Assembly: GCA_965217675.1 (NCBI GenBank)
Contig: OZ244559.1
Coordinates: forward strand, 2,756,355-2,820,354
Origin: Dehalococcoidia bacterium
GTDB taxonomy: Bacteria > Chloroflexota > Dehalococcoidia > Lucifugimonadales > UBA1127
Reading direction: 5' to 3'
DNA length: 64,000 nucleotides
In this document: piece after piece, positions 3,735 through 37,099 of the stretch
Layout: every line of letters starts with the position of its first letter
Position numbering within the stretch: position 1 is the first letter of the stretch
Position numbers and translations under genes: made by a program
Notes under the pieces: generated by a model
The model's database searches: none
Seen by the model: the letters and a program-made list of their open reading frames with translations, nothing else
Told to the model about the DNA's origin: nothing

Positions 3735-5138
3735 CTAGCTTTGTGGGAGTATGCCCCTACTTTGAAGTTGAACCAATAGGTACTCTTGCACTCTGTCTCC
3801 CTTTATGCGGTTGCAGTGAGAGCACAGAATCTGCAAGTTTCCGATGTGATCCGAACCCCCTCGTGATTGTGGCACGATGTGGTCAACTTCAAAGAGGCGG
3901 TATGGAAACTCTCCCCTGCATCCTGCACAACGTCCTTCTTGGAGGCCAAAGAGGACGTGTTTGTTCTCCCTATAGTTTATGGGTGCGTCGATATCTGTTC
4001 GTCGTGGTATGTCATTTCTGACGGTCACGAGTCTATCGTGAAATAGACTGCCAATGCCTTGAGGAGCAGGTTGCCTAAGCCGCTCCCCGACCAATTCAAC
4101 GGCCTTCGGTGAAATGTCTATCCCGACCCATTGCCTATCCAGTTTTTCGGCGGCGACACAGGCAGTTGCGCACCCGCAGAATGGGTCAAGAACCATGTCT
4201 CCGGTGTTGCTACTTGCGGCAATAATTCGCTCCAAGAGAGCCAGGGGCTTCTGTGTTGGATAGCCTGTGCGCTCTGGCGATTGGGCTTGTATAGGTTTAA
4301 TGTCTGTCCAGATTGTGTCTATCGGATTCCCTTTCATTTCATCAAGATAACGTTTCAAGACCGGCACGGACCCCGGCCTTTGTTGTAGGACCAGCCCATT
4401 ATCATAGGCCTCCTTCATTCGCTCTCTTGTCCAGCGCCAGACCCTAGTCACGCCGAGAAACTCGTAGGTTAGGTTTGGTCTATTAGGATTTGGATTTGTC
4501 AGATCACCTAAGCGGTATCGACGGCCCGAACCGGGTTCGGTAAACCGGTAGAATTTGTCCACATAAGTCTGATCATGTGGCCCATAGGGACGCTGCCACG
4601 CAAAGCGGTCGCTCTTGCTGTAATAGAGCAATACGTCAGCATTGTTGGGGTAACCCTTAAACGCAAGTCCCTTGGCGTTGGTTCGCCGCCAAGTGATATC
4701 GCTCCGGAATTGCCCGGAGCCAAAGACCGCGTCCATCAGCAACTTGAGATAGTGGCTGGCATATGGGTCACAGTGAAGGTAGATGGAACCTGTGTCCTTT
4801 AATACGCGCCACATCTGAAGCAAACGCACTGCCATCATTGTCAGGTAGGACTGCATACCCTTGCCGTGAACTCTTCCTGCCGTGTCCAACAATTTCGCGA
4901 TTGAGGCGTGTTCTTCTGCAATTAGGCCCATCCAGGCGACGTCAAGATCCGAGAGAGTCCAAGTGTCCTTGAAGGAAGCGCCTGCTGCGCGACTTCCAAC
5001 CGGTGCCTCGTAATCCCGATTGCTATTAAAGGGTGGATCAAGATAAATGAGGTCCACGGTCTCAGAGTTCATTCCCCTGAGAATATCGAGGTTGTCGCCA
5101 GTCCAAATAGTCTTGTTCGAGTAGTTGGGGGTTGCCAT
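3735..5138 (-). CDS. Beta-class N6A/N4C DNA methyltransferase fused to C-terminal HNH endonuclease
   Basis: IYLDPPF precedes YPTQKP and VLDPFCGCAT; C-terminal CAGC...VDHIVP..GG..NLQILCSHCN; lower GC than flanks. Confidence 0.9.
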   Translation of the reverse strand: MATPNYSNKTIWTGDNLDILRGMNSETVDLIYLDPPFNSNRDYEAPVGSRAAGASFKDTWTLSDLDVAWMGLIAEEHASIAKLLDTAGRVHGKGMQSYLTMMAVRLLQMWRVLKDTGSIYLHCDPYASHYLKLLMDAVFGSGQFRSDITWRRTNAKGLAFKGYPNNADVLLYYSKSDRFAWQRPYGPHDQTYVDKFYRFTEPGSGRRYRLGDLTNPNPNRPNLTYEFLGVTRVWRWTRERMKEAYDNGLVLQQRPGSVPVLKRYLDEMKGNPIDTIWTDIKPIQAQSPERTGYPTQKPLALLERIIAASSNTGDMVLDPFCGCATACVAAEKLDRQWVGIDISPKAVELVGERLRQPAPQGIGSLFHDRLVTVRNDIPRRTDIDAPINYRENKHVLFGLQEGRCAGCRGEFPYRLFEVDHIVPQSRGGSDHIGNLQILCSHCNRIKGDRVQEYLLVQLQSRGILPQS

Positions 5139-5371
5139 CGAATCACCAGCCCTCTTATTGCATTCAGATATCTATCAGAAACTGGTCCGCACCCACCAAG
5201 GCTGCGCAAGTTTCGTTTCCCTGTGTCGCGACAGTGCCGTGACACGTTTCAATTGGGCGCTTGGTAGCCATCGCAGTCTTGCTGCGCCCAGTTATTGCCT
5301 GATTGCCGATTGTACACTACTCGGACTCGTCGCTAGCTAGGAAGGCTAAAGCTCAGAAAGGCCCCCCCACA

Positions 5372-5750
5372 CCCTGACACCACCCCCTTCCCCCCAAGCC
5401 CCGCCCCCCGCTACCCTCCCCCCATGGCACACGCACGCAACCTCCTCGAACAGCCCTTCGCCCCCACGGTTCACATCGATGAACGCGTCCGGTACGGCTC
5501 CCCAACAGCAGGCATTTGTTTCAACACCGCGGAGTGTTCTTGCCTTAGATTTGTAGCTGCAATGCGTCACCGCCAATACAAAGCGATTGCCAGGACAAGG
5601 TTTCCTCAGCTACGAATTGCCAGGACAACAAGGATTCCCCCAGCTACGACGCCCCGTGAAAACGATCGCTCAAAAACGCTCTCCCGCACCCTCGACGGCG
5701 GCGCAACGCCACCCTCTGCAGCGGGCCAGACGGGCATGACAGGAGAGGTG
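5372..5750 (+). repeat. Dispersed element copy 1 (promoter-like head, palindrome, 34-bp-spaced half-sites)
   Basis: CCCTGACACC 5372, TACCCT 5412-5417, ATG 5424, TTTGTAGCTG 5550, CCAATACAAA 5573, CAGCTACGAA 5607, CAGCTACGAC 5641; aligns by eye with copies at 27 kb and 36.6 kb. Confidence 0.85.
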
Positions 5751-5868
5751 GAACACAGTGTGGAGGGAGACCCGTGGCAACAGCGCGGAGACACTACCAG
5801 TGGAGGGAAACCCGTGCGCCCCGAGCCTGCCAAGAGCCCGACCCGCACTCGATGCCAGCGCGCAACCC

Positions 5869-6159
5869 CTACCGCCGTCCCCGCCCTCGACGCCGTCGGC
5901 GCGCAGGCGCGTCCGTCGCGTCCGGGGCTCCAGGGCCCTCTGCCGCCTCCGCAGTGCGGGCCATCACCCGCCCGCTCAGCCGGCGCGCCACCATGTGCAG
6001 CGGCAGCCCCACCACCACCATCAGGCCCAGGAAGATTGCCGCCTCCAGCGCGCCCTTGTACCCGAACCCGTCCCTGAAGAGGACGTACGCAGACGCCATC
6101 AGGCAGAAGAAGACCACCAGCCAGAAGAGCGTCCCGGTGAACAGCGCAAGGAAGGCCAT
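5869..6159 (-). CDS. Small two-TM membrane protein
   Basis: Two hydrophobic segments and a basic tail; directly downstream of the IMPase gene. Confidence 0.65.
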   Translation of the reverse strand: MAFLALFTGTLFWLVVFFCLMASAYVLFRDGFGYKGALEAAIFLGLMVVVGLPLHMVARRLSGRVMARTAEAAEGPGAPDATDAPARRRRRGRGRR

Positions 6160-9118: not shown

Positions 9119-9192
9119 GGCCCGCTAGCTCAATTAGGCAGAGCAACTGACTCTTAATCAGTGGGTTCTCGGTTCAAGTCCGAGGCGGGTCA
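9119..9192 (+). tRNA. tRNA-Lys(CTT), CCA not encoded
   Basis: Acceptor GGCCCGC/GCGGGTC; anticodon arm ACTGA-CTCTTAA-TCAGT; T-loop GGTTCAAGTCC. Confidence 0.95.
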
Positions 9193-9233: not shown

Positions 9234-9318
9234 GGGGATGTGTCGGAACTGGCAGACGAGCATGACTTAGGATCATGTGCCCAACGGCGTCCGGGTTCGA
9301 GTCCCGGCATCCCCACCA
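9234..9318 (+). tRNA. tRNA-Leu(TAG)
   Basis: Acceptor GGGGATG/CATCCCC-ACCA; anticodon arm CATGA-CTTAGGA-TCATG; long variable arm; GGTTCGAGTCC. Confidence 0.95.
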
Positions 9319-16465: not shown

Positions 16466-17617
16466 ATGCCCGATTCTCTGCCAACCGACGTTCAGCGCGG
16501 CGCATCTCGCGTGGGTGACCCCGCGTTTGACGGCATCGTCTTGCGCATCGCAGAGGCGTCGGACGAGATTGAGCGCGAGCGCCGGATCCCCGTGGACATC
16601 GCCCGCGACATGATTGACGAGGGCCTCTTCCGCCTGCTGGTGCCCCGCTCCCTGGGCGGCGGCGAGGTCGACTACCTGGACTATTTAACGATGGTCCGGG
16701 CCATCGCGACGGCGGACGGCAGCACCGGCTGGTGCTTCAACCAGAACAACATCCTCGGCACCATGGCGTCCATCATGCCGAGGCGCCTGGCGGAGGAGGT
16801 CTGGAGCGACCCTCGCGCCGTCCTCTGCAATGGTCCGCCGCAGTTCGCGCAGGTCTCGGAGGTGGAGGGCGGCTACTCGCTCACGGGCCGGTGGAACTTC
16901 AGCAGCGGCTCACCGCAGGCCAATTGGGCGGTGGCCATCAGCCGCGTCGCCGACGCCAATACGATAACGTTCGTCATCCCCAAGGACCAGGTCACCTTCT
17001 TCGACTCGTGGCAGGTGAACGGGCTCCGAGGCACTGGCAGCTTCAGCTTCGAGACCAAGGACCTCTTCGTGCCGGCGAGCCACAGCTACGTCGAGGCCCG
17101 CACGCCAAACGAGAGCGGCCCGCTGTACCTGATCCCCCGCGGCCTGTTCTTCGGCTCCGGGTTCGGGTCGGTCGCGCTGGGCGTTGCCCGCTCCAGCCTC
17201 GACCTCGCGAAGGAGGCCGCGCTGCGCAAGACGCCGCAGGAGCAGTCACTGCTGCGGGACCAGCCCGCAGTCCAGGGCGACATCGGCCGTGCCGAGGCGC
17301 TTTGGGGCGCCGCCTCCGCCTACCTGTGGGAGAAGGCCACGAATCTCTGGCGCTGCGCCGTCGACCGCGGTTTCATCACCATGGAAGAGCGCGCTAACCT
17401 GCGGTTGGCCAGCACACACGCCATCCGCCAGGCGGTCGAGGTAGTCGACATCGCCTACGGCGTTTTCGGCGCGACGGCCATCTTTGAGACCAGCCCCATC
17501 CAGCGCAAGTTCCAGGACGCCCACGCCATCACCCAGCAGATCCAGGGCCGCCTGGAGCACTACCAGACGGTGGGCCAGTACTTCCTGGGCATGGAGCCCC
17601 GGGCCAGACTGCTCTAG
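16466..17617 (+). CDS. Acyl-CoA-dehydrogenase-fold flavin-dependent hydroxylase (HsaA/C2-like)
   Basis: LVPRSLGG, GRWNFSSG, WQVNGLRGTGS, IQRKFQD. Confidence 0.85.
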   Translation: MPDSLPTDVQRGASRVGDPAFDGIVLRIAEASDEIERERRIPVDIARDMIDEGLFRLLVPRSLGGGEVDYLDYLTMVRAIATADGSTGWCFNQNNILGTMASIMPRRLAEEVWSDPRAVLCNGPPQFAQVSEVEGGYSLTGRWNFSSGSPQANWAVAISRVADANTITFVIPKDQVTFFDSWQVNGLRGTGSFSFETKDLFVPASHSYVEARTPNESGPLYLIPRGLFFGSGFGSVALGVARSSLDLAKEAALRKTPQEQSLLRDQPAVQGDIGRAEALWGAASAYLWEKATNLWRCAVDRGFITMEERANLRLASTHAIRQAVEVVDIAYGVFGATAIFETSPIQRKFQDAHAITQQIQGRLEHYQTVGQYFLGMEPRARLL

Positions 17618-25911: not shown

Positions 25912-26859
25912 TTGGTCAACGCCACGCGTGTTCTGCTCATTGCCATGGCGCTAGCCGCACTGCTGGCCGCCTGCCTCGACGCCGGCCTCGCCGAATCGGA
26001 AGGTGAGGGTTCGAGGGGGGTGGGCGTACCCGCTCCAACCGAGGAGCCCGCCTCCACTGAGCCGTCGCCGGAGCTGAGCGGTATCCTCGCGACCAAGGAC
26101 CTGGGCGTTGGGGCGAACCGCATCTCCTTCCTGCTGGTCAGCCCCAAGGCGCTGGTGAAAGTGCCCTCGGCGACGGTCAAATCGGTGAACCTGAGCGCGC
26201 CTGACGCCGTCGTCGAGACGTCGACGGCGGAGTTCTTCCTGTGGCCCTTCGGGTCGCGGGGCAACTACGCGACGGAGCTGACCTTCGACCAGCCGGGGGA
26301 GTGGCGGCTCGACGTCGAGGTCACGGAGGAGGATGGGTCGATCGGCATGGCGCAGATCCCGCTGACGATAGGCGAGCGCAGCGACACGCCCTCGTTCGGC
26401 GACGTGCCGCCCAGCGAGGACAACAAGACCGTTCGGGACGTGGGCACGCTGGCGGAGCTGACGACCAGCTCGACGCCGGACCCGGACCTGTACCAGCAGA
26501 CCGTTGCGGAGGCGCTTGGCGAGGGGAAGCCGCTGCTGGTGGTGTTCGCCAGCCCGGCGCTGTGCACCAGCCCGACGTGCGGCCCGCAGGTGGAGACGGT
26601 GGAGGAGCTGAAGGAGCAGTACAAGGGCCGCGCCGGCTTCATCCACGTTGAGGTGTACGACAACCCGTCGGAGATCCAGGGCGACCTTGACCGGGCCCAG
26701 TACGCGCCCATGGTGGACGAGTGGGGCCTCTTGGCGCAGACCGGCTACCTGAACGAGTCCTGGGTCTTCATCTTCGGCGCGGACGGCACGGTGACGTCGA
26801 AGTACCAGGGCTACGCGAGCATCGAGGAGCTGACCAAGGGGCTCGACGCGGTGCTGTAG
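25912..26859 (+). CDS. Lipoprotein with thioredoxin-like fold (Cx4C)
   Basis: Lipobox LAAC; VVFASPALCTSPTCGP, FIHVEVY. Confidence 0.75.
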   Translation: MVNATRVLLIAMALAALLAACLDAGLAESEGEGSRGVGVPAPTEEPASTEPSPELSGILATKDLGVGANRISFLLVSPKALVKVPSATVKSVNLSAPDAVVETSTAEFFLWPFGSRGNYATELTFDQPGEWRLDVEVTEEDGSIGMAQIPLTIGERSDTPSFGDVPPSEDNKTVRDVGTLAELTTSSTPDPDLYQQTVAEALGEGKPLLVVFASPALCTSPTCGPQVETVEELKEQYKGRAGFIHVEVYDNPSEIQGDLDRAQYAPMVDEWGLLAQTGYLNESWVFIFGADGTVTSKYQGYASIEELTKGLDAVL

Positions 26860-26944
26860 CCGGGGCGGCGTTCGCTCGCTCGTCGAGGGTGTTTCATGCT
26901 CCGAGCCTCCATGCGGACGACCTCCGCTCATCTTGCTTTTCTCT

Positions 26945-27567
26945 TCATTCTGTCTCCATTTGACCTACCTTGTTGCGGCGGTCGGGATGCGGCCGGTGGT
27001 GGCGCCGCGCCGCCGACGCGGCCGCGCCCCGACGCGGGTGCAGGACAGGGTTTTGGGCAGTTGTATTCACGGGCCGTCGTCGCTGGGGAAACCCTTGTTA
27101 TGCCGGCGCGTCGTAGCTGAATGAACGCTGTTTTTGCAATCACTTTGTAGCTGATGTGACGCATTGCAGCTACAAACCTAAAATCCGATCACACCGCATT
27201 TTGAAACAAATCCTGGATCTCGCGGGCCGAGCGTGCCTGAATCTCGATGCTGAGCATGCGGGATAGCATCTTGGCGGCGCGCAAGAGGATGGCGGGGTCC
27301 GCGTGGGGGTCGGCCAAGAGGCCGACGAGCTTGATGCGCATGCGGTCGGTGAGCGGGTTGAGGTTGCCGTCGCGGCGGGCAGCCGTGCGGGCGTACCGCT
27401 GCTGCGGGGACAGGGGGATGTCGAAGACACCGCGCTTGCGGGATTTCTGGTTGCCGGGCTGGCTGCCGCGACGCCGTCGTGGCAGGGTTGTGGGGGTCCT
27501 GGTTGCGTTGCTCATGGGGAGAGGGTAGCGGGGGGTTGGGCGTGGGGGCTAGGGGGTGGTGTCAGGG
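26945..27567 (-). repeat. Dispersed element copy 2 (longest; contains a 108-aa ORF)
   Basis: Reverse complement of CCCTGACACC at 27558-27567; ATG 27515; palindrome 27144-27176; half-sites 27110-27119 and 27076-27085. Confidence 0.85.
27189..27515 (-). CDS. Small basic hypothetical protein with G-x-QPGN-x3-R-K-x-G motif
   Basis: RRGSQPGNQKSRKRG followed by predicted helices; TACCCT 6 nt before the ATG (leaderless type). Confidence 0.6.
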   Translation of the reverse strand: MSNATRTPTTLPRRRRGSQPGNQKSRKRGVFDIPLSPQQRYARTAARRDGNLNPLTDRMRIKLVGLLADPHADPAILLRAAKMLSRMLSIEIQARSAREIQDLFQNAV

Positions 27568-27582
27568 TGGGGGGCTGTCGGC

Positions 27583-27697
27583 GGGACGGGCGATTCGCGA
27601 ATCGCCCCTACGGTGTGTTTGGTAGTTGGGTAAATCGTGATTGGGTGGTGGTGGAGATGCCCTGTCCCTCTGGATTCCTGCCTTCGCAGGAATGACG
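27583..27697 (-). repeat. REP mosaic (modules C and A)
   Basis: GGGCGATTCGCGAATCGCCCCTAC 27588-27611 (reverse complement of a GTAG-type REP); CTGGATTCCTGCCTTCGCAGGAATGACG ending at 27697. Confidence 0.9.
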
Positions 27698-27796
27698 AGG
27701 GTGGGGGGTGCGAGACGGCATAGGGAAAACTAACGCATGCGCAGAAGTGAGACCGTTCTTGCTCACTGAACACTATAGCTGAGGTGACCTCCCAAA

Positions 27797-28534
27797 CTAT
27801 CCGCCGGACTTAAACAACTCGTTCAATATTCGTAGTCTATGCGCTGCATTGGGCATGGGCAGCTCTAAAACGTCGTCTTCAACGCTTCGCAAGTAACTGG
27901 ATACTGAGAATACCCACAATTTGGCAAACTGTGGTGAAGTCGGCCACGATTCCGACCTTCCGGGGAAACTGTGATTTGGGTTGGATACGCTGAATAAGTG
28001 CTCCCTTGGGCTTTCCTTGGGGCCCATGGCTTCCCAGAAGATGAGCAATGGTTGGATTATTTTCTGGTCAACGCCCTTTGGAGGTTTCATTGGAACCAGC
28101 ACCTTACCTGTGTATGCCGCACGCAAAGTGTGATTCTCTTTGTTCCAATGGCGGTCCCAACGCCGTTGCTTGTATTCAACTATTTGCGATGAAGAGGCGG
28201 GTAGGGGTAGACGCTCGCCCCCAAAAGCATGTGCGGAATAGTTCTTGATCTCTGTCTGAAAGACGGTCCTTGACTGGTCTGACCAAAGCACATCTATCCA
28301 ACGGTCTAGCCTGGGGCCCTTCCGCCCTCCAGTGCCCACAGTACTCTCGAGAACCCTAGACGTTGCTCCTTTAGCTTCAAGGTAGTGCGCAAAGCATGCC
28401 GCATTCAAGTCTTCGCCAACGATGGCGACGATGCTGGTTGCGTGAGTTATGGACCATTCTGGTTTTTCGTCAAAGAAGCTGAGAAGTTCCTTCCGCTGAA
28501 TCGTTATCATCTCCTGGGATGGAGAATTTGCCAT
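27797..28534 (-). CDS. Hypothetical protein, PD-(D/E)xK restriction-endonuclease-like
   Basis: RLDRW...FQTEIKN (D...ExK); lower GC; GAGGAGG RBS. Confidence 0.6.
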   Translation of the reverse strand: MANSPSQEMITIQRKELLSFFDEKPEWSITHATSIVAIVGEDLNAACFAHYLEAKGATSRVLESTVGTGGRKGPRLDRWIDVLWSDQSRTVFQTEIKNYSAHAFGGERLPLPASSSQIVEYKQRRWDRHWNKENHTLRAAYTGKVLVPMKPPKGVDQKIIQPLLIFWEAMGPKESPREHLFSVSNPNHSFPGRSESWPTSPQFAKLWVFSVSSYLRSVEDDVLELPMPNAAHRLRILNELFKSGG

Positions 28535-36469: not shown

Positions 36470-36740
36470 GCGGCGTCGAGGGACATACGTTGCGCGGGCC
36501 GTCGTAGCTGAGTGAAGACCCAAATGGCATTCGTATTTGTAGCTGGTGTGTCGCATTGCAGCTACAAAGCCAATATTTTCTATTTTATGCCGGGGAGAAG
36601 CCAATCCTCCTTCAACGACTGCGCAGGCGCGCACGACGCTATGGGGATTGGCGATGTTCCGGTTGCGGTGGATGCGTGCGATTGCCATGCGGGTACGGTA
36701 GCGTGGGGCGGAGCGTCGAGGCAAGGAGGCGGTGTCAGGG
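36470..36740 (-). repeat. Dispersed element copy 3
   Basis: GGTGTCAGGG 36731-36740; ATG 36688; palindrome 36536-36568; half-site 36501-36510. Confidence 0.85.
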
Positions 36741-36741
36741 G

Positions 36742-37003
36742 CGGGCGATTCGCGAACCGCCGCTTCGGACAGAGGTGGCGTTCGGGGTGCTGCGACAGTT
36801 GGTGGTAGTGAGGTTGCCCCGCCTTCGCCCTACCCCTCTGGATTCCTGCCTTCGCAGGAATGACGAGTGTGGGTGCTCGGGCCGACAAGCGCTGCTAGTG
36901 GCTGAGGGGTGAGGTTACCGCTGCTGCGGGACGGCCCCCTTCGAGTGCCCTCAGGACAGGCTTCGAGAGCCTCAGGGTGATCGGAATCGCGAATCGCCCC
37001 TAC
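36742..37003 (-). repeat. REP mosaic (C', A, D, B', C)
   Basis: Degenerate module C from 36742; module A 36833-36865; CGACAAGCGCTGCTAGTGG near 36883; B-like 36938-36978; module C ending 37003. Confidence 0.85.
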
Positions 37004-37099
37004 GACGGCGTGTGGGGAGTTGGGTATGCGTGGGGGGTTGGTAGTGGGGGCGCTCCCTCGGTTGTTGCTGGGCCGGTAGGCGTCACTGACAGACTTCGC

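Follow-up and report, generated by a model that had tools for sequence, protein, structure and literature searches.

A small-terminase-like gene and a phased palindromic array form a dispersed module in a Dehalococcoidia chromosome

We examined a palindromic element in a 64-kb stretch of DNA (hereafter the window; positions 2756355-2820354 of the single 2.86-Mb contig, 64% G+C, of a Dehalococcoidia genome), where an earlier note, drawn from the sequence alone, had described a three-copy element made of a palindrome followed by half-sites at a fixed period. Two of the copies (copies 2 and 3) carry a perfect 10-nt inverted repeat whose arms, TTTGTAGCTG and CAGCTACAAA, lie 13 nt apart; the right arm of copy 1 is degenerate (CCAATACAAA). 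Further half-sites of the right-arm type stand beyond the palindrome, on one side only in all three copies. Counted from position 5573, those of copy 1 follow at intervals of 34 and 34 nt; copy 2 has one starting at 27110 (GTCGTAGCTG) and a degenerate one at 27076 (GTCGTCGCTG, i.e. CAGCGAC), again at 34 and 34 nt; and copy 3 has a single one, spaced by 35 nt. Palindromes, half-site starts and spacings agree with the earlier description, as does its remark that copies 1 and 2 can be aligned beyond the palindrome, which holds over 196 nt at 75.5% identity. Allowing one mismatch, TTTGTAGCTG occurs nine times in the window; in 100 shuffles the average was 1.38 and the highest count 5, so that none reached nine.

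The count of three copies reflected a view limited to the window. A search with the 21-nt left arm and loop at up to four substitutions recovered 42 oriented copies genome-wide, and at up to three mismatches it recovered 35, with none for the reversed-pattern control; other sub-families share a common GTAGCTG-N13-CAGCTAC frame and have different centre sequences. When the copies were oriented by the asymmetric centre CAATGCG(T/A)CAC and aligned, the palindrome proved to be the middle or tail part of a longer module of 0.4-0.65 kb, in which the conserved unit spans approximately 190 nt upstream of the palindrome (the leader together with a gene or its relic) and approximately 200 nt downstream. 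The module reads in a constant order: a C-rich leader (ACCCTG(A/C)CACC ... TTGCCC ... GCTACCCT, about 6 nt, ATG), a gene of about 110 codons or its relic, a left inverted repeat (IR-L; GGGAATTGTTTC, ..TTGTTTC) a few bases past the stop codon, a stretch of about 28 nt, either A/T-rich or with a small hairpin, the palindrome, zero to two extra 34-nt units that each open with CAGCTAC and contain an (A/G)ACAA motif, and a right inverted repeat (IR-R; GAAA(A)CAAT..CCC), after which one sub-family has about 45 further conserved bases. The whole array forms one large imperfect inverted repeat, namely ATTGTTTC, about 28 nt, GTAGCTG, the conserved asymmetric 13-nt centre, CAGCTAC, about 12 nt and GAAACAAT, with the right-hand 34-nt unit (CAGCTAC plus the ACAA-type motif) repeated one to three times. 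In copy 1 of the window, ATTGCCAGGACAA and ACAAGG(T/A)TTCC each recur once, showing that the reiterated units are mutually homologous; the 34-nt period thus arises from tandem reiteration of the right-end unit.

Further genomic copies with conserved 34-bp spacing, which the earlier note had named as a test of its proposal, do exist. Across 84 copies from this genome and one sister species, 83 of the 90 gaps between successive right half-sites measure 33-35 nt (34 nt in 59, 35 nt in 20 and 33 nt in four), the rest being 24-25 nt (five) or 44 nt (two); copies with no, one, two and three right half-sites number 1, 16, 44 and 23. Because these 84 copies are mutually related, the spacing figure alone is no proof of constraint. 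A spacing of 34-35 nt also recurs in relatives whose spacer sequence is unrelated (loci L004, L005, L018 and L019; counted by eye), and Tandem Repeats Finder did not call the 34-nt units. The argument that such a period excludes coding constraint stands for the array. The conserved stretch just upstream is the 3′ end of the gene or of its relic, which had been missed; this relic in front of the palindrome explains why the upstream sequence had looked conserved.

Every copy retains the leader and the start codon. The leader motif ACCCTG[AC]CAC occurs 52 times in the genome, compared to 12 times in a backwards control, and of the 32 occurrences traceable into an open reading frame (ORF), nearly all lead into the gene family described below. 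A scan for consensus promoters found none at the leaders. We considered the leader as a general promoter of leaderless genes and dropped the idea, given that a stricter pattern matched only 14 places, mostly these elements, and the promoter scan was negative. Of the genome matches to the IR-L pattern GG[GC]A[AT]TTGTTTC, 20 of 20 lie inside these elements, against approximately 0.5 expected. All but one of the 42 palindromes lie outside crude gene calls, and the neighbouring genes are unrelated housekeeping genes; a conserved downstream gene family was rejected on the same grounds. Spurious long ORFs run through the repeat (for example, window 5424-6077, plus strand), with translations that contain ..FVAAMRHRQYK.. 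from the palindrome, and such read-through frames may stand as hypothetical proteins in public records.

The gene of copy 2 is intact and encodes 108 amino acids. A tblastn search with its product found eight further paralogues in the genome at E <= 1e-3, and a search with a better-conserved 113-residue paralogue gave 15 matches, some of them relics; approximately 11 copies in the genome bear an intact gene. In these, the array starts 5-10 nt past the stop codon. In copies 1 and 3 of the window, the leader is still present, as are the ATG with a few N-terminal codons and the coding part for the C-terminal ..RIDDRxRFGS (..RIxxRxRYGS in copy 1), but the middle is absent; both are internal-deletion derivatives of the gene-bearing module. 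Other genomes, both within the genus and from different genera, show the same order of a gene and then inverted repeats but carry other variants of the motifs.

An alignment of 62 family members showed an invariant basic motif, G..GNQNARKHGFY, followed by helices, and an AlphaFold2 (AF2) model was all-helical, with three helices and a mean pLDDT of 75. The 113-residue paralogue matched small-terminase families (phrog_1889 at 7.6e-8 and phrog_509 at 9.8e-7) as well as NF040601, where an E-value of 1.6e-7 corresponds to 31 bits, below the 120-bit cut-off. Pfam returned nothing useful for the small protein, tblastn against the phage collection gave no match, and Foldseek of the AF2 model against the PDB gave no match at E <= 0.001. 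In the ESM Atlas it fell among unnamed Chloroflexota clusters, the nearest named clusters being small terminases at 0.76-0.79, which serves as a lead only. The top profile match among PDB sequences, the Cas4-family nuclease ACE1 (9iab; E 9e-4 over 57 residues), was taken as chance, the part of PMC12094033 consulted describing no domain that would explain it.

The genomic context of distant homologues was more informative. Among 65 related loci in Dehalococcoidia assemblies there is a group, from more distant relatives, in which a conserved ORF comes immediately after the homologue, and all four such ORFs used as tblastn queries found a 52-54% identical homologue at 2479913-2481499 of this genome. 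Its product matches large-terminase PHROGs (phrog_38 at 4.4e-8), identifying a terL-like gene; since relatives' ORFs recovered it in this way, the failure of Pfam models PF03237 and PF03354 to find a terL in the genome was a misleading negative. The gene approximately 0.8 kb upstream of this terL, in the position of terS, aligns with the profile of the small-gene family at 99.1% probability (hhalign, E 6e-19), so that the scattered genes are paralogues of the terS-position gene. Together, the profile and context matches identify the module as one built on a paralogue of the small terminase (TerS).

The motifs of the array are conserved above its spacers. Comparison with the sister species over 14 stringent orthologous pairs gave identities of 0.97 in the left arm, 0.97 in the centre, 0.96 in the right arm and 0.96 in IR-L, compared to 0.87-0.89 in the spacers between half-sites; the sample is small, but it suggests that selection still acts on the motifs, gene-less copies included. 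Furthermore, in one sub-family that includes copy 1 of the window, the right arm is destroyed and the downstream half-sites are intact. Each motif is thus conserved as a word in its own right, which is what sites for a protein on duplex DNA would be expected to show.

Small terminases assemble into oligomeric rings, and the repeated elements to which they bind form pac or cos sites close to the terminase gene itself. The explanation we favour, and to which we give about even chances, is that the array consists of DNA sites bound by the TerS-like paralogues, a nucleoprotein module resembling a pac site that has been multiplied over the chromosome; we infer binding from the adjacency of gene and array and from the behaviour of small terminases. 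The array would act as double-stranded DNA, oligomers of the paralogues would bind it cooperatively in the manner of small terminases on repeated pac/cos elements, and gene-less copies would be bound in trans by proteins from the approximately 11 intact ones. Most likely, the arrays were left by, or still serve, a domesticated phage packaging system.

Several observations weigh against this explanation. The window's own 108-residue protein matches no PHROG and no Pfam family, and its motif is degenerate. The family as a whole is without the N-terminal helix-turn-helix of classical small terminases, so that the match covers only the basic GNQNARKHGFYS motif and the helices. Gene-less copies outnumber intact genes by approximately 3:1. 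The strongly conserved asymmetric 13-nt centre is unlike a simple symmetric dimer site and could be the target of another factor. The paired end motifs vary together across lineages (AATTGTTTC/GAAACAATT, ACTCGTTT/AAACGAGT, ATTCGTTT/AAACGAAT and AGTCGTTT/AAACGACT), a pattern equally compatible with a pair of inverted binding sites, with a transposon end and with a helix in RNA; moreover, gene and array are physically linked, and their shared variation is therefore not independent evidence of recognition. Lastly, the arrays have no preferred orientation towards their neighbours (the downstream gene shares the strand of the array in 23 cases and lies opposite in 19), which fits a DNA site but offers no functional clue.

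Outside the window, single, intact and far-apart phage-type genes stand among housekeeping genes: the terS-position gene (2482317-2482649, minus strand) with terL at 2.48 Mb (together 2479913-2482649), a portal gene at 2738646-2739956 (phrog_64 at 3e-21) and a major capsid protein gene at 2841613-2842503 (phrog_212 at 3.5e-67). Among 41 genomes of relatives, each is single-copy and conserved across genera (60-98% identity), with the portal found in 19, the capsid in 19 and TerL in 15; in other genera, terL and portal are adjacent. The portal is present in 15 of the 16 genomes that have scattered TerS-like genes, a figure that is suggestive only, as the genomes are related and not independent. 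The ACCCTG[AC]CAC leader motif also lies upstream of the capsid and portal genes. On this evidence, the terL, portal and capsid genes are a candidate domesticated gene set of the gene transfer agent (GTA) type in Dehalococcoidia.

Read by eye, the terS-position protein has ..GGPAFY.. in place of GNQNARKHGFY and carries a C-terminal tail, and its locus with terL has none of the array motifs; the scattered paralogues keep the GNQNARKHG motif and have no such tail. As the motif occurs only in the scattered paralogues and the tail only in the terS-position protein, mixed rings could join site recognition to terminase recruitment. A more specific proposal, which we consider unlikely, would make the modules scattered pac-like recognition sites of a domesticated GTA-like phage system. 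Recognition (by the scattered paralogues) and terminase recruitment (by the terS-position protein) would then be split between paralogues, and host DNA would be packaged from approximately 40 defined chromosomal entry points.

Two further features of the terminase locus were recorded. In eight relatives (G001, G002, G006, G012, G016, G018, G020 and G028), the terL homologue matches in two pieces, with a break at approximately 310-345 of 528 residues that may reflect a frameshift, inserted sequence or an element intervening at a fixed position; in this genome, the match is continuous. A site of the form ..GCGACAAAAC .. TAGAACATATGTGCTATTAT.. is conserved upstream of an operon of a small ORF, terS and terL in many Dehalococcoidales assemblies (approximately 20 distant loci), and a related GACATATGTTCTATTTTTG lies at the equivalent place here (2483150-2483190; approximately 17150-17190 of locus L165, minus strand). 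In form, it resembles an operator or SOS-box-type site.

A structured RNA would be a different way to account for the nested repeats. It could be the 3′ untranslated region of the small gene, or a small non-coding RNA in gene-less copies, with IR-L and IR-R forming an outer helix around a hairpin with a 13-nt loop, perhaps bound by the protein that the gene encodes. The joint variation of the nested inverted repeats on both sides across lineages would suit such a fold, as would the asymmetric conserved loop, typical of a recognised hairpin loop, and the leader and start codon of every copy, through which even a gene-less module may remain a transcription unit (the leader being a presumed promoter in which the consensus scan found none). 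Arm mismatches speak otherwise. The arms of the 42 copies comprise 420 positions, of which 343 are Watson-Crick pairs, 17 G-T, 16 A-C and 44 other, and the mismatches in the sister species comprise 12 G-T, 23 A-C and 32 other. Selection on an RNA or on a hairpin in single-stranded DNA would be expected to enrich G-T on one strand, which the arms do not show, indicating that the half-sites are kept as words and not as pairs; the sub-family that lost its right arm and kept the downstream half-sites argues in the same direction. The strand opposite the gene had the lower fold energy in all 21 of the 42 copies in which both end motifs were located. Nevertheless, z-scores against dinucleotide shuffles were weak (means of -1.0 for the gene strand and -1.4 for the opposite strand), so that the difference between strands is mostly base composition. 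Rfam searches, which the earlier note had proposed, returned only two tRNAs for the whole window at the gathering threshold and nothing for 26700-27900 at E <= 5. We therefore regard an RNA as quite improbable. The two tRNA genes lie at 9119-9192 and 9234-9315 of the window (plus strand). On inspection, we also dropped domain V of a group II intron (neither an AGC triad nor a GNRA loop is present), type III toxin-antitoxin repeats (wrong gene order) and an intrinsic terminator (no T-run).

Mobility offers the other family of alternatives. The element might be a selfish non-autonomous repeat of the type of MITEs (miniature inverted-repeat transposable elements), repetitive extragenic palindromes or bacterial interspersed mosaic elements (REP/BIME), or BOX elements, with IR-L and IR-R as transposon ends, the palindrome and half-sites bound by a transposase or recombinase, and the small gene a passenger or mobility factor. 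This origin, which we hold to be doubtful, would explain the many dispersed intergenic copies, the retention of both ends in internally deleted derivatives, the modular build with its varying number of internal units, and the variation between species both in strict-pattern copy number (35, 42, 10, 8, 6 and 4) and in the presence or absence of elements; a 14-kb insertion between direct copies of the element in the sister species would fit as well. No consistently co-occurring transposase or recombinase, for which the earlier note had suggested looking, was found. No Y1/RAYT transposase (PF01797) was found in the 2.86-Mb contig by a search that was positive in six of 14 control genomes, no neighbouring gene is conserved beside the 11 intact loci, and the IR-L motif flanks nothing else that could be a parent insertion sequence (IS). 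The comparison of empty with filled sites, likewise proposed there, spoke against transposon ends: five comparisons between species gave no clean junction and no target-site duplication, and because the aligned 'empty' sites, those in this genome among them, keep a leader relic, they are deletions and not uninserted sites. On either side, the conserved unit also reaches past the inverted repeats. Of the 42 copies in the sister species, most are syntenic with copies here, some positions being common even to more distant species of the genus, and identity between the closest paralogues in the genome reaches only 88-93%, which argues for an old spread with no recent movement. Judged from these comparisons, the family spread by duplication long ago and decays through internal deletion. 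A related possibility is a site for site-specific recombination, in which inverted arms around an asymmetric crossover, with accessory sites, would be used by one of the genome's tyrosine or large serine recombinases. The form, with its identical asymmetric centre and one-sided accessory sites, does resemble lox/FRT/dif or res sites; the genome has six tyrosine and seven large serine recombinases, two of the 11 intact modules have a large serine recombinase at a distance of less than 5 kb, and the sister-species insertion is flanked by direct copies. We nonetheless find such a use highly improbable, as the 13-nt centre exceeds the overlaps of known tyrosine (6-8 nt) and serine (2 nt) recombinases, no recombinase is a consistent neighbour, approximately 42 copies in both orientations would scramble a chromosome that is collinear with the sister species at most loci, and the rearrangement junctions examined lie at tRNA 3′ ends, outside the element. 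Four metagenome contig sets, in which contigs break at the repeats, gave no informative joints.

Binding of the array by TerS-like proteins accordingly remains the explanation we prefer. The earlier note had offered a phased protein-binding array (recombinase core with accessory sites, transposon-end-like, or packaging- or iteron-like) or a structured RNA; the packaging- or iteron-like option is favoured, given that in intact copies, as in distant relatives, the array lies behind a TerS-like gene and that the motif words and the spacing of approximately 34 nt are kept, the recombinase and transposon-end options being left without a partner and the case for RNA being weak. The features of the three window copies are collected in Table 1.

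Table 1. Parts of the three module copies in the window, in module order. IR-L and IR-R, left and right inverted repeats.
Feature	Positions in window	Strand	Evidence
Copy 1, C-rich leader, ACCCTGACACC ... GCTACCCT, 6 nt, ATG	5371..5423	+	Leader-motif search, copy alignment
Copy 1, TerS-like gene relic with internal deletion, MAHARNLLEQPFAPTVHIDERVRYGS; stop codon absent where the family normally has it	5424..5501	+	
Copy 1, IR-L, GGCATTTGTTTC	5511..5522	+	IR-L motif search of genome
Copy 1, 10-13-10 palindrome, degenerate right arm	5550..5582	+	
Copy 1, two CAGCTAC half-sites (5607-5613 and 5641-5647), 34-nt period	5607..5647	+	Direct-repeat detection
Copy 1, IR-R, GAAAACGATCGCTC; conserved tail continues to ~5750	5658..5671	+	
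Copy 2, C-rich leader	27516..27568	-	
Copy 2, intact 108-aa TerS-like gene, divergent member, motif GNQKSRKRGVF	27189..27515	-	tblastn, family alignment
Copy 2, IR-L, GGATTTGTTTC, within the gene's last codons	27203..27213	-	
Copy 2, perfect palindrome, conserved asymmetric centre CAATGCGTCACAT (minus-strand reading)	27144..27176	-	
Copy 2, two extra half-sites: 27110-27119 CAGCTACGAC, 27076-27085 degenerate CAGCGACGAC (minus-strand reading)	27076..27119	-	
Copy 2, IR-R, GAATACAACTGCCC (minus-strand reading)	27055..27068	-	
Copy 3, leader, CCCTGACACC .. TTGCCT .. GCTACCGT .. ATG	36689..36741	-	
Copy 3, truncated gene relic, then IR-L-like GGATTGGCTTC (36597-36607), then A/T-rich spacer	36569..36688	-	
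Copy 3, perfect palindrome	36536..36568	-	
Copy 3, one extra half-site CAGCTACGAC (minus-strand reading), 35 nt from the right arm	36501..36510	-	

Several observations were made in the surroundings of these elements. Just upstream of copy 1, window 3735-5138 (minus strand) encodes a DNA methylase (N6_N4_Mtase, 1.9e-41) fused to an HNH endonuclease domain, and synteny with the sister species is lost at the element's 5′ edge, at approximately window 5364. In contig 1 of the sister species (741500-759500; locus L077), a 13.9-kb insertion relative to this genome holds an ORF of 3576 codons and is flanked by 405-bp direct copies of the element (93.6% identical), beside a tRNA-Lys gene; paralogues of this giant gene lie at 2087477-2099027 and approximately 131-139 kb in this genome. 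A segment of approximately 70 kb (1907084-1976470), absent at that place in the sister species, sits at the 3′ end of a tRNA gene, is bounded by the tRNA-end repeat GGCCCACCA and starts with a large serine recombinase (1908194-1908634), which makes it a classical tRNA-targeted island that is only adjacent to the element. A general link between the element and tRNA genes was considered and rejected, since a tRNA gene stands within 1.2 kb of only six of the 42 copies and the island junctions fall at tRNA ends and not in the element. Other hairpin repeat families, GTAGGGGCGATTCGCGAATCGCCC and CGTCATTCCTGCGAAGGCAGGAATCCAGAGGG, occur at window 27580-27612, 27663-27700, 36833-36872 and 36990-37010 and at many places elsewhere in the genome, where they form tandem arrays with periods of approximately 94-212 nt; GTAGGGGCGATTCGCGAATCGCCC has the classical GTAG-tagged REP form, although no RAYT gene was found in the genome.

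Dispersed palindromic repeats are common, and the protein that reads them is rarely known; here, the repeat carries its own candidate reader, the TerS paralogue. Should this protein bind the array, a phage DNA-recognition module would have been copied many times over the chromosome of a cell. If packaging with the conserved terminase, portal and capsid genes were also to start at the arrays, this would be the first GTA-like system with defined chromosomal entry sites, and the first such candidate in Dehalococcoidia, a class that is mostly uncultured and about whose gene exchange little is known. Should there be no binding, the module is still a well-delimited new class of repeat, useful in annotation because its relics yield spurious ORFs.

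Among known systems, the closest functional counterparts are the recognition arrays of phage packaging, such as the R sites of lambda cosB, the pacL and pacR boxes of SPP1 and the hexamer arrays of P1 pac. Common to these and to the present array are short motifs repeated at fixed spacing, an A/T-rich stretch between motif groups and a place in or beside a terS-type gene, which holds for the intact copies, whose protein is homologous to that of the terS-position gene. A phage, in contrast, has one site per genome, whereas the chromosome here has 42 copies without adjacent terL or structural genes, and the protein is without both the classical N-terminal DNA-binding domain and the C-terminal tail of terL-linked relatives. 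No match to the array was found by blastn in the plasmid and phage collections. Phage-inducible chromosomal islands (PICIs) use a TerS or Rpp protein with its own pac or cos site, as one module in an island of 10-15 kb with integrase and replication genes. The resemblance lies in a TerS-derived protein that stands outside the classical gene set and is coupled to one specific DNA target; unlike in PICIs, no integrase or replication island surrounds the modules, the intact loci having no conserved neighbours. The small terminase of the Rhodobacter capsulatus GTA, as far as the consulted part of PMC6854486 describes it, offers a similar parallel, a TerS-derived protein apart from the classical set and tied to a DNA target or to its loss.

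In appearance, the element comes closer to dispersed repeats. According to the consulted part of Di Nocera et al. 2013 (PMC3733652), GTAG-tagged REPs are mobilised by RAYT transposases and carry the GTAG tag at one end, outside the base pairing; they share with the present element short GTAG/CTAC palindromes, many intergenic copies that often lie behind genes, and clusters with tandem copies. Here, by contrast, GTAG and CTAC lie inside both arms and are paired with each other, and PF01797 is absent. The element also differs from these REPs in its linked protein gene, its outer inverted repeat and its phased extra half-sites. As to MITEs, inverted repeats of 8-13 nt (IR-L and IR-R) are present and vary jointly across lineages, but the conserved unit extends past both, and neither a parent IS sharing the same ends nor a target-site duplication was found. 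Integron attC sites have the core sites RYYYAAC ... GTTRRRY and stand in cassette arrays served by the IntI integrase; the outer repeats here read ..TTGTTTC ... GAAACAA.., and the copies are dispersed without cassette arrays (IntI was not searched for). The element lacks defining features of GTAG REPs, MITEs, attC sites, Rfam families or a strict phage pac site, and a literature search, which did not extend to repeat catalogues in supplements, found no description of a scattered module joining a small-terminase paralogue to a site. BOX elements of Streptococcus pneumoniae and Correia or MITE-type repeats are built from modular ends that can pair, with variable internal units and no gene. The same modular left end, variable number of internal units, right end and pairable ends characterise the present element, which differs in that its intact copies encode a conserved protein and its gene-less copies are visibly deletion derivatives. 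Collectively, these comparisons suggest an element closest in function to a pac/cos recognition array and closest in appearance to a modular repeat of the BOX/BIME type.

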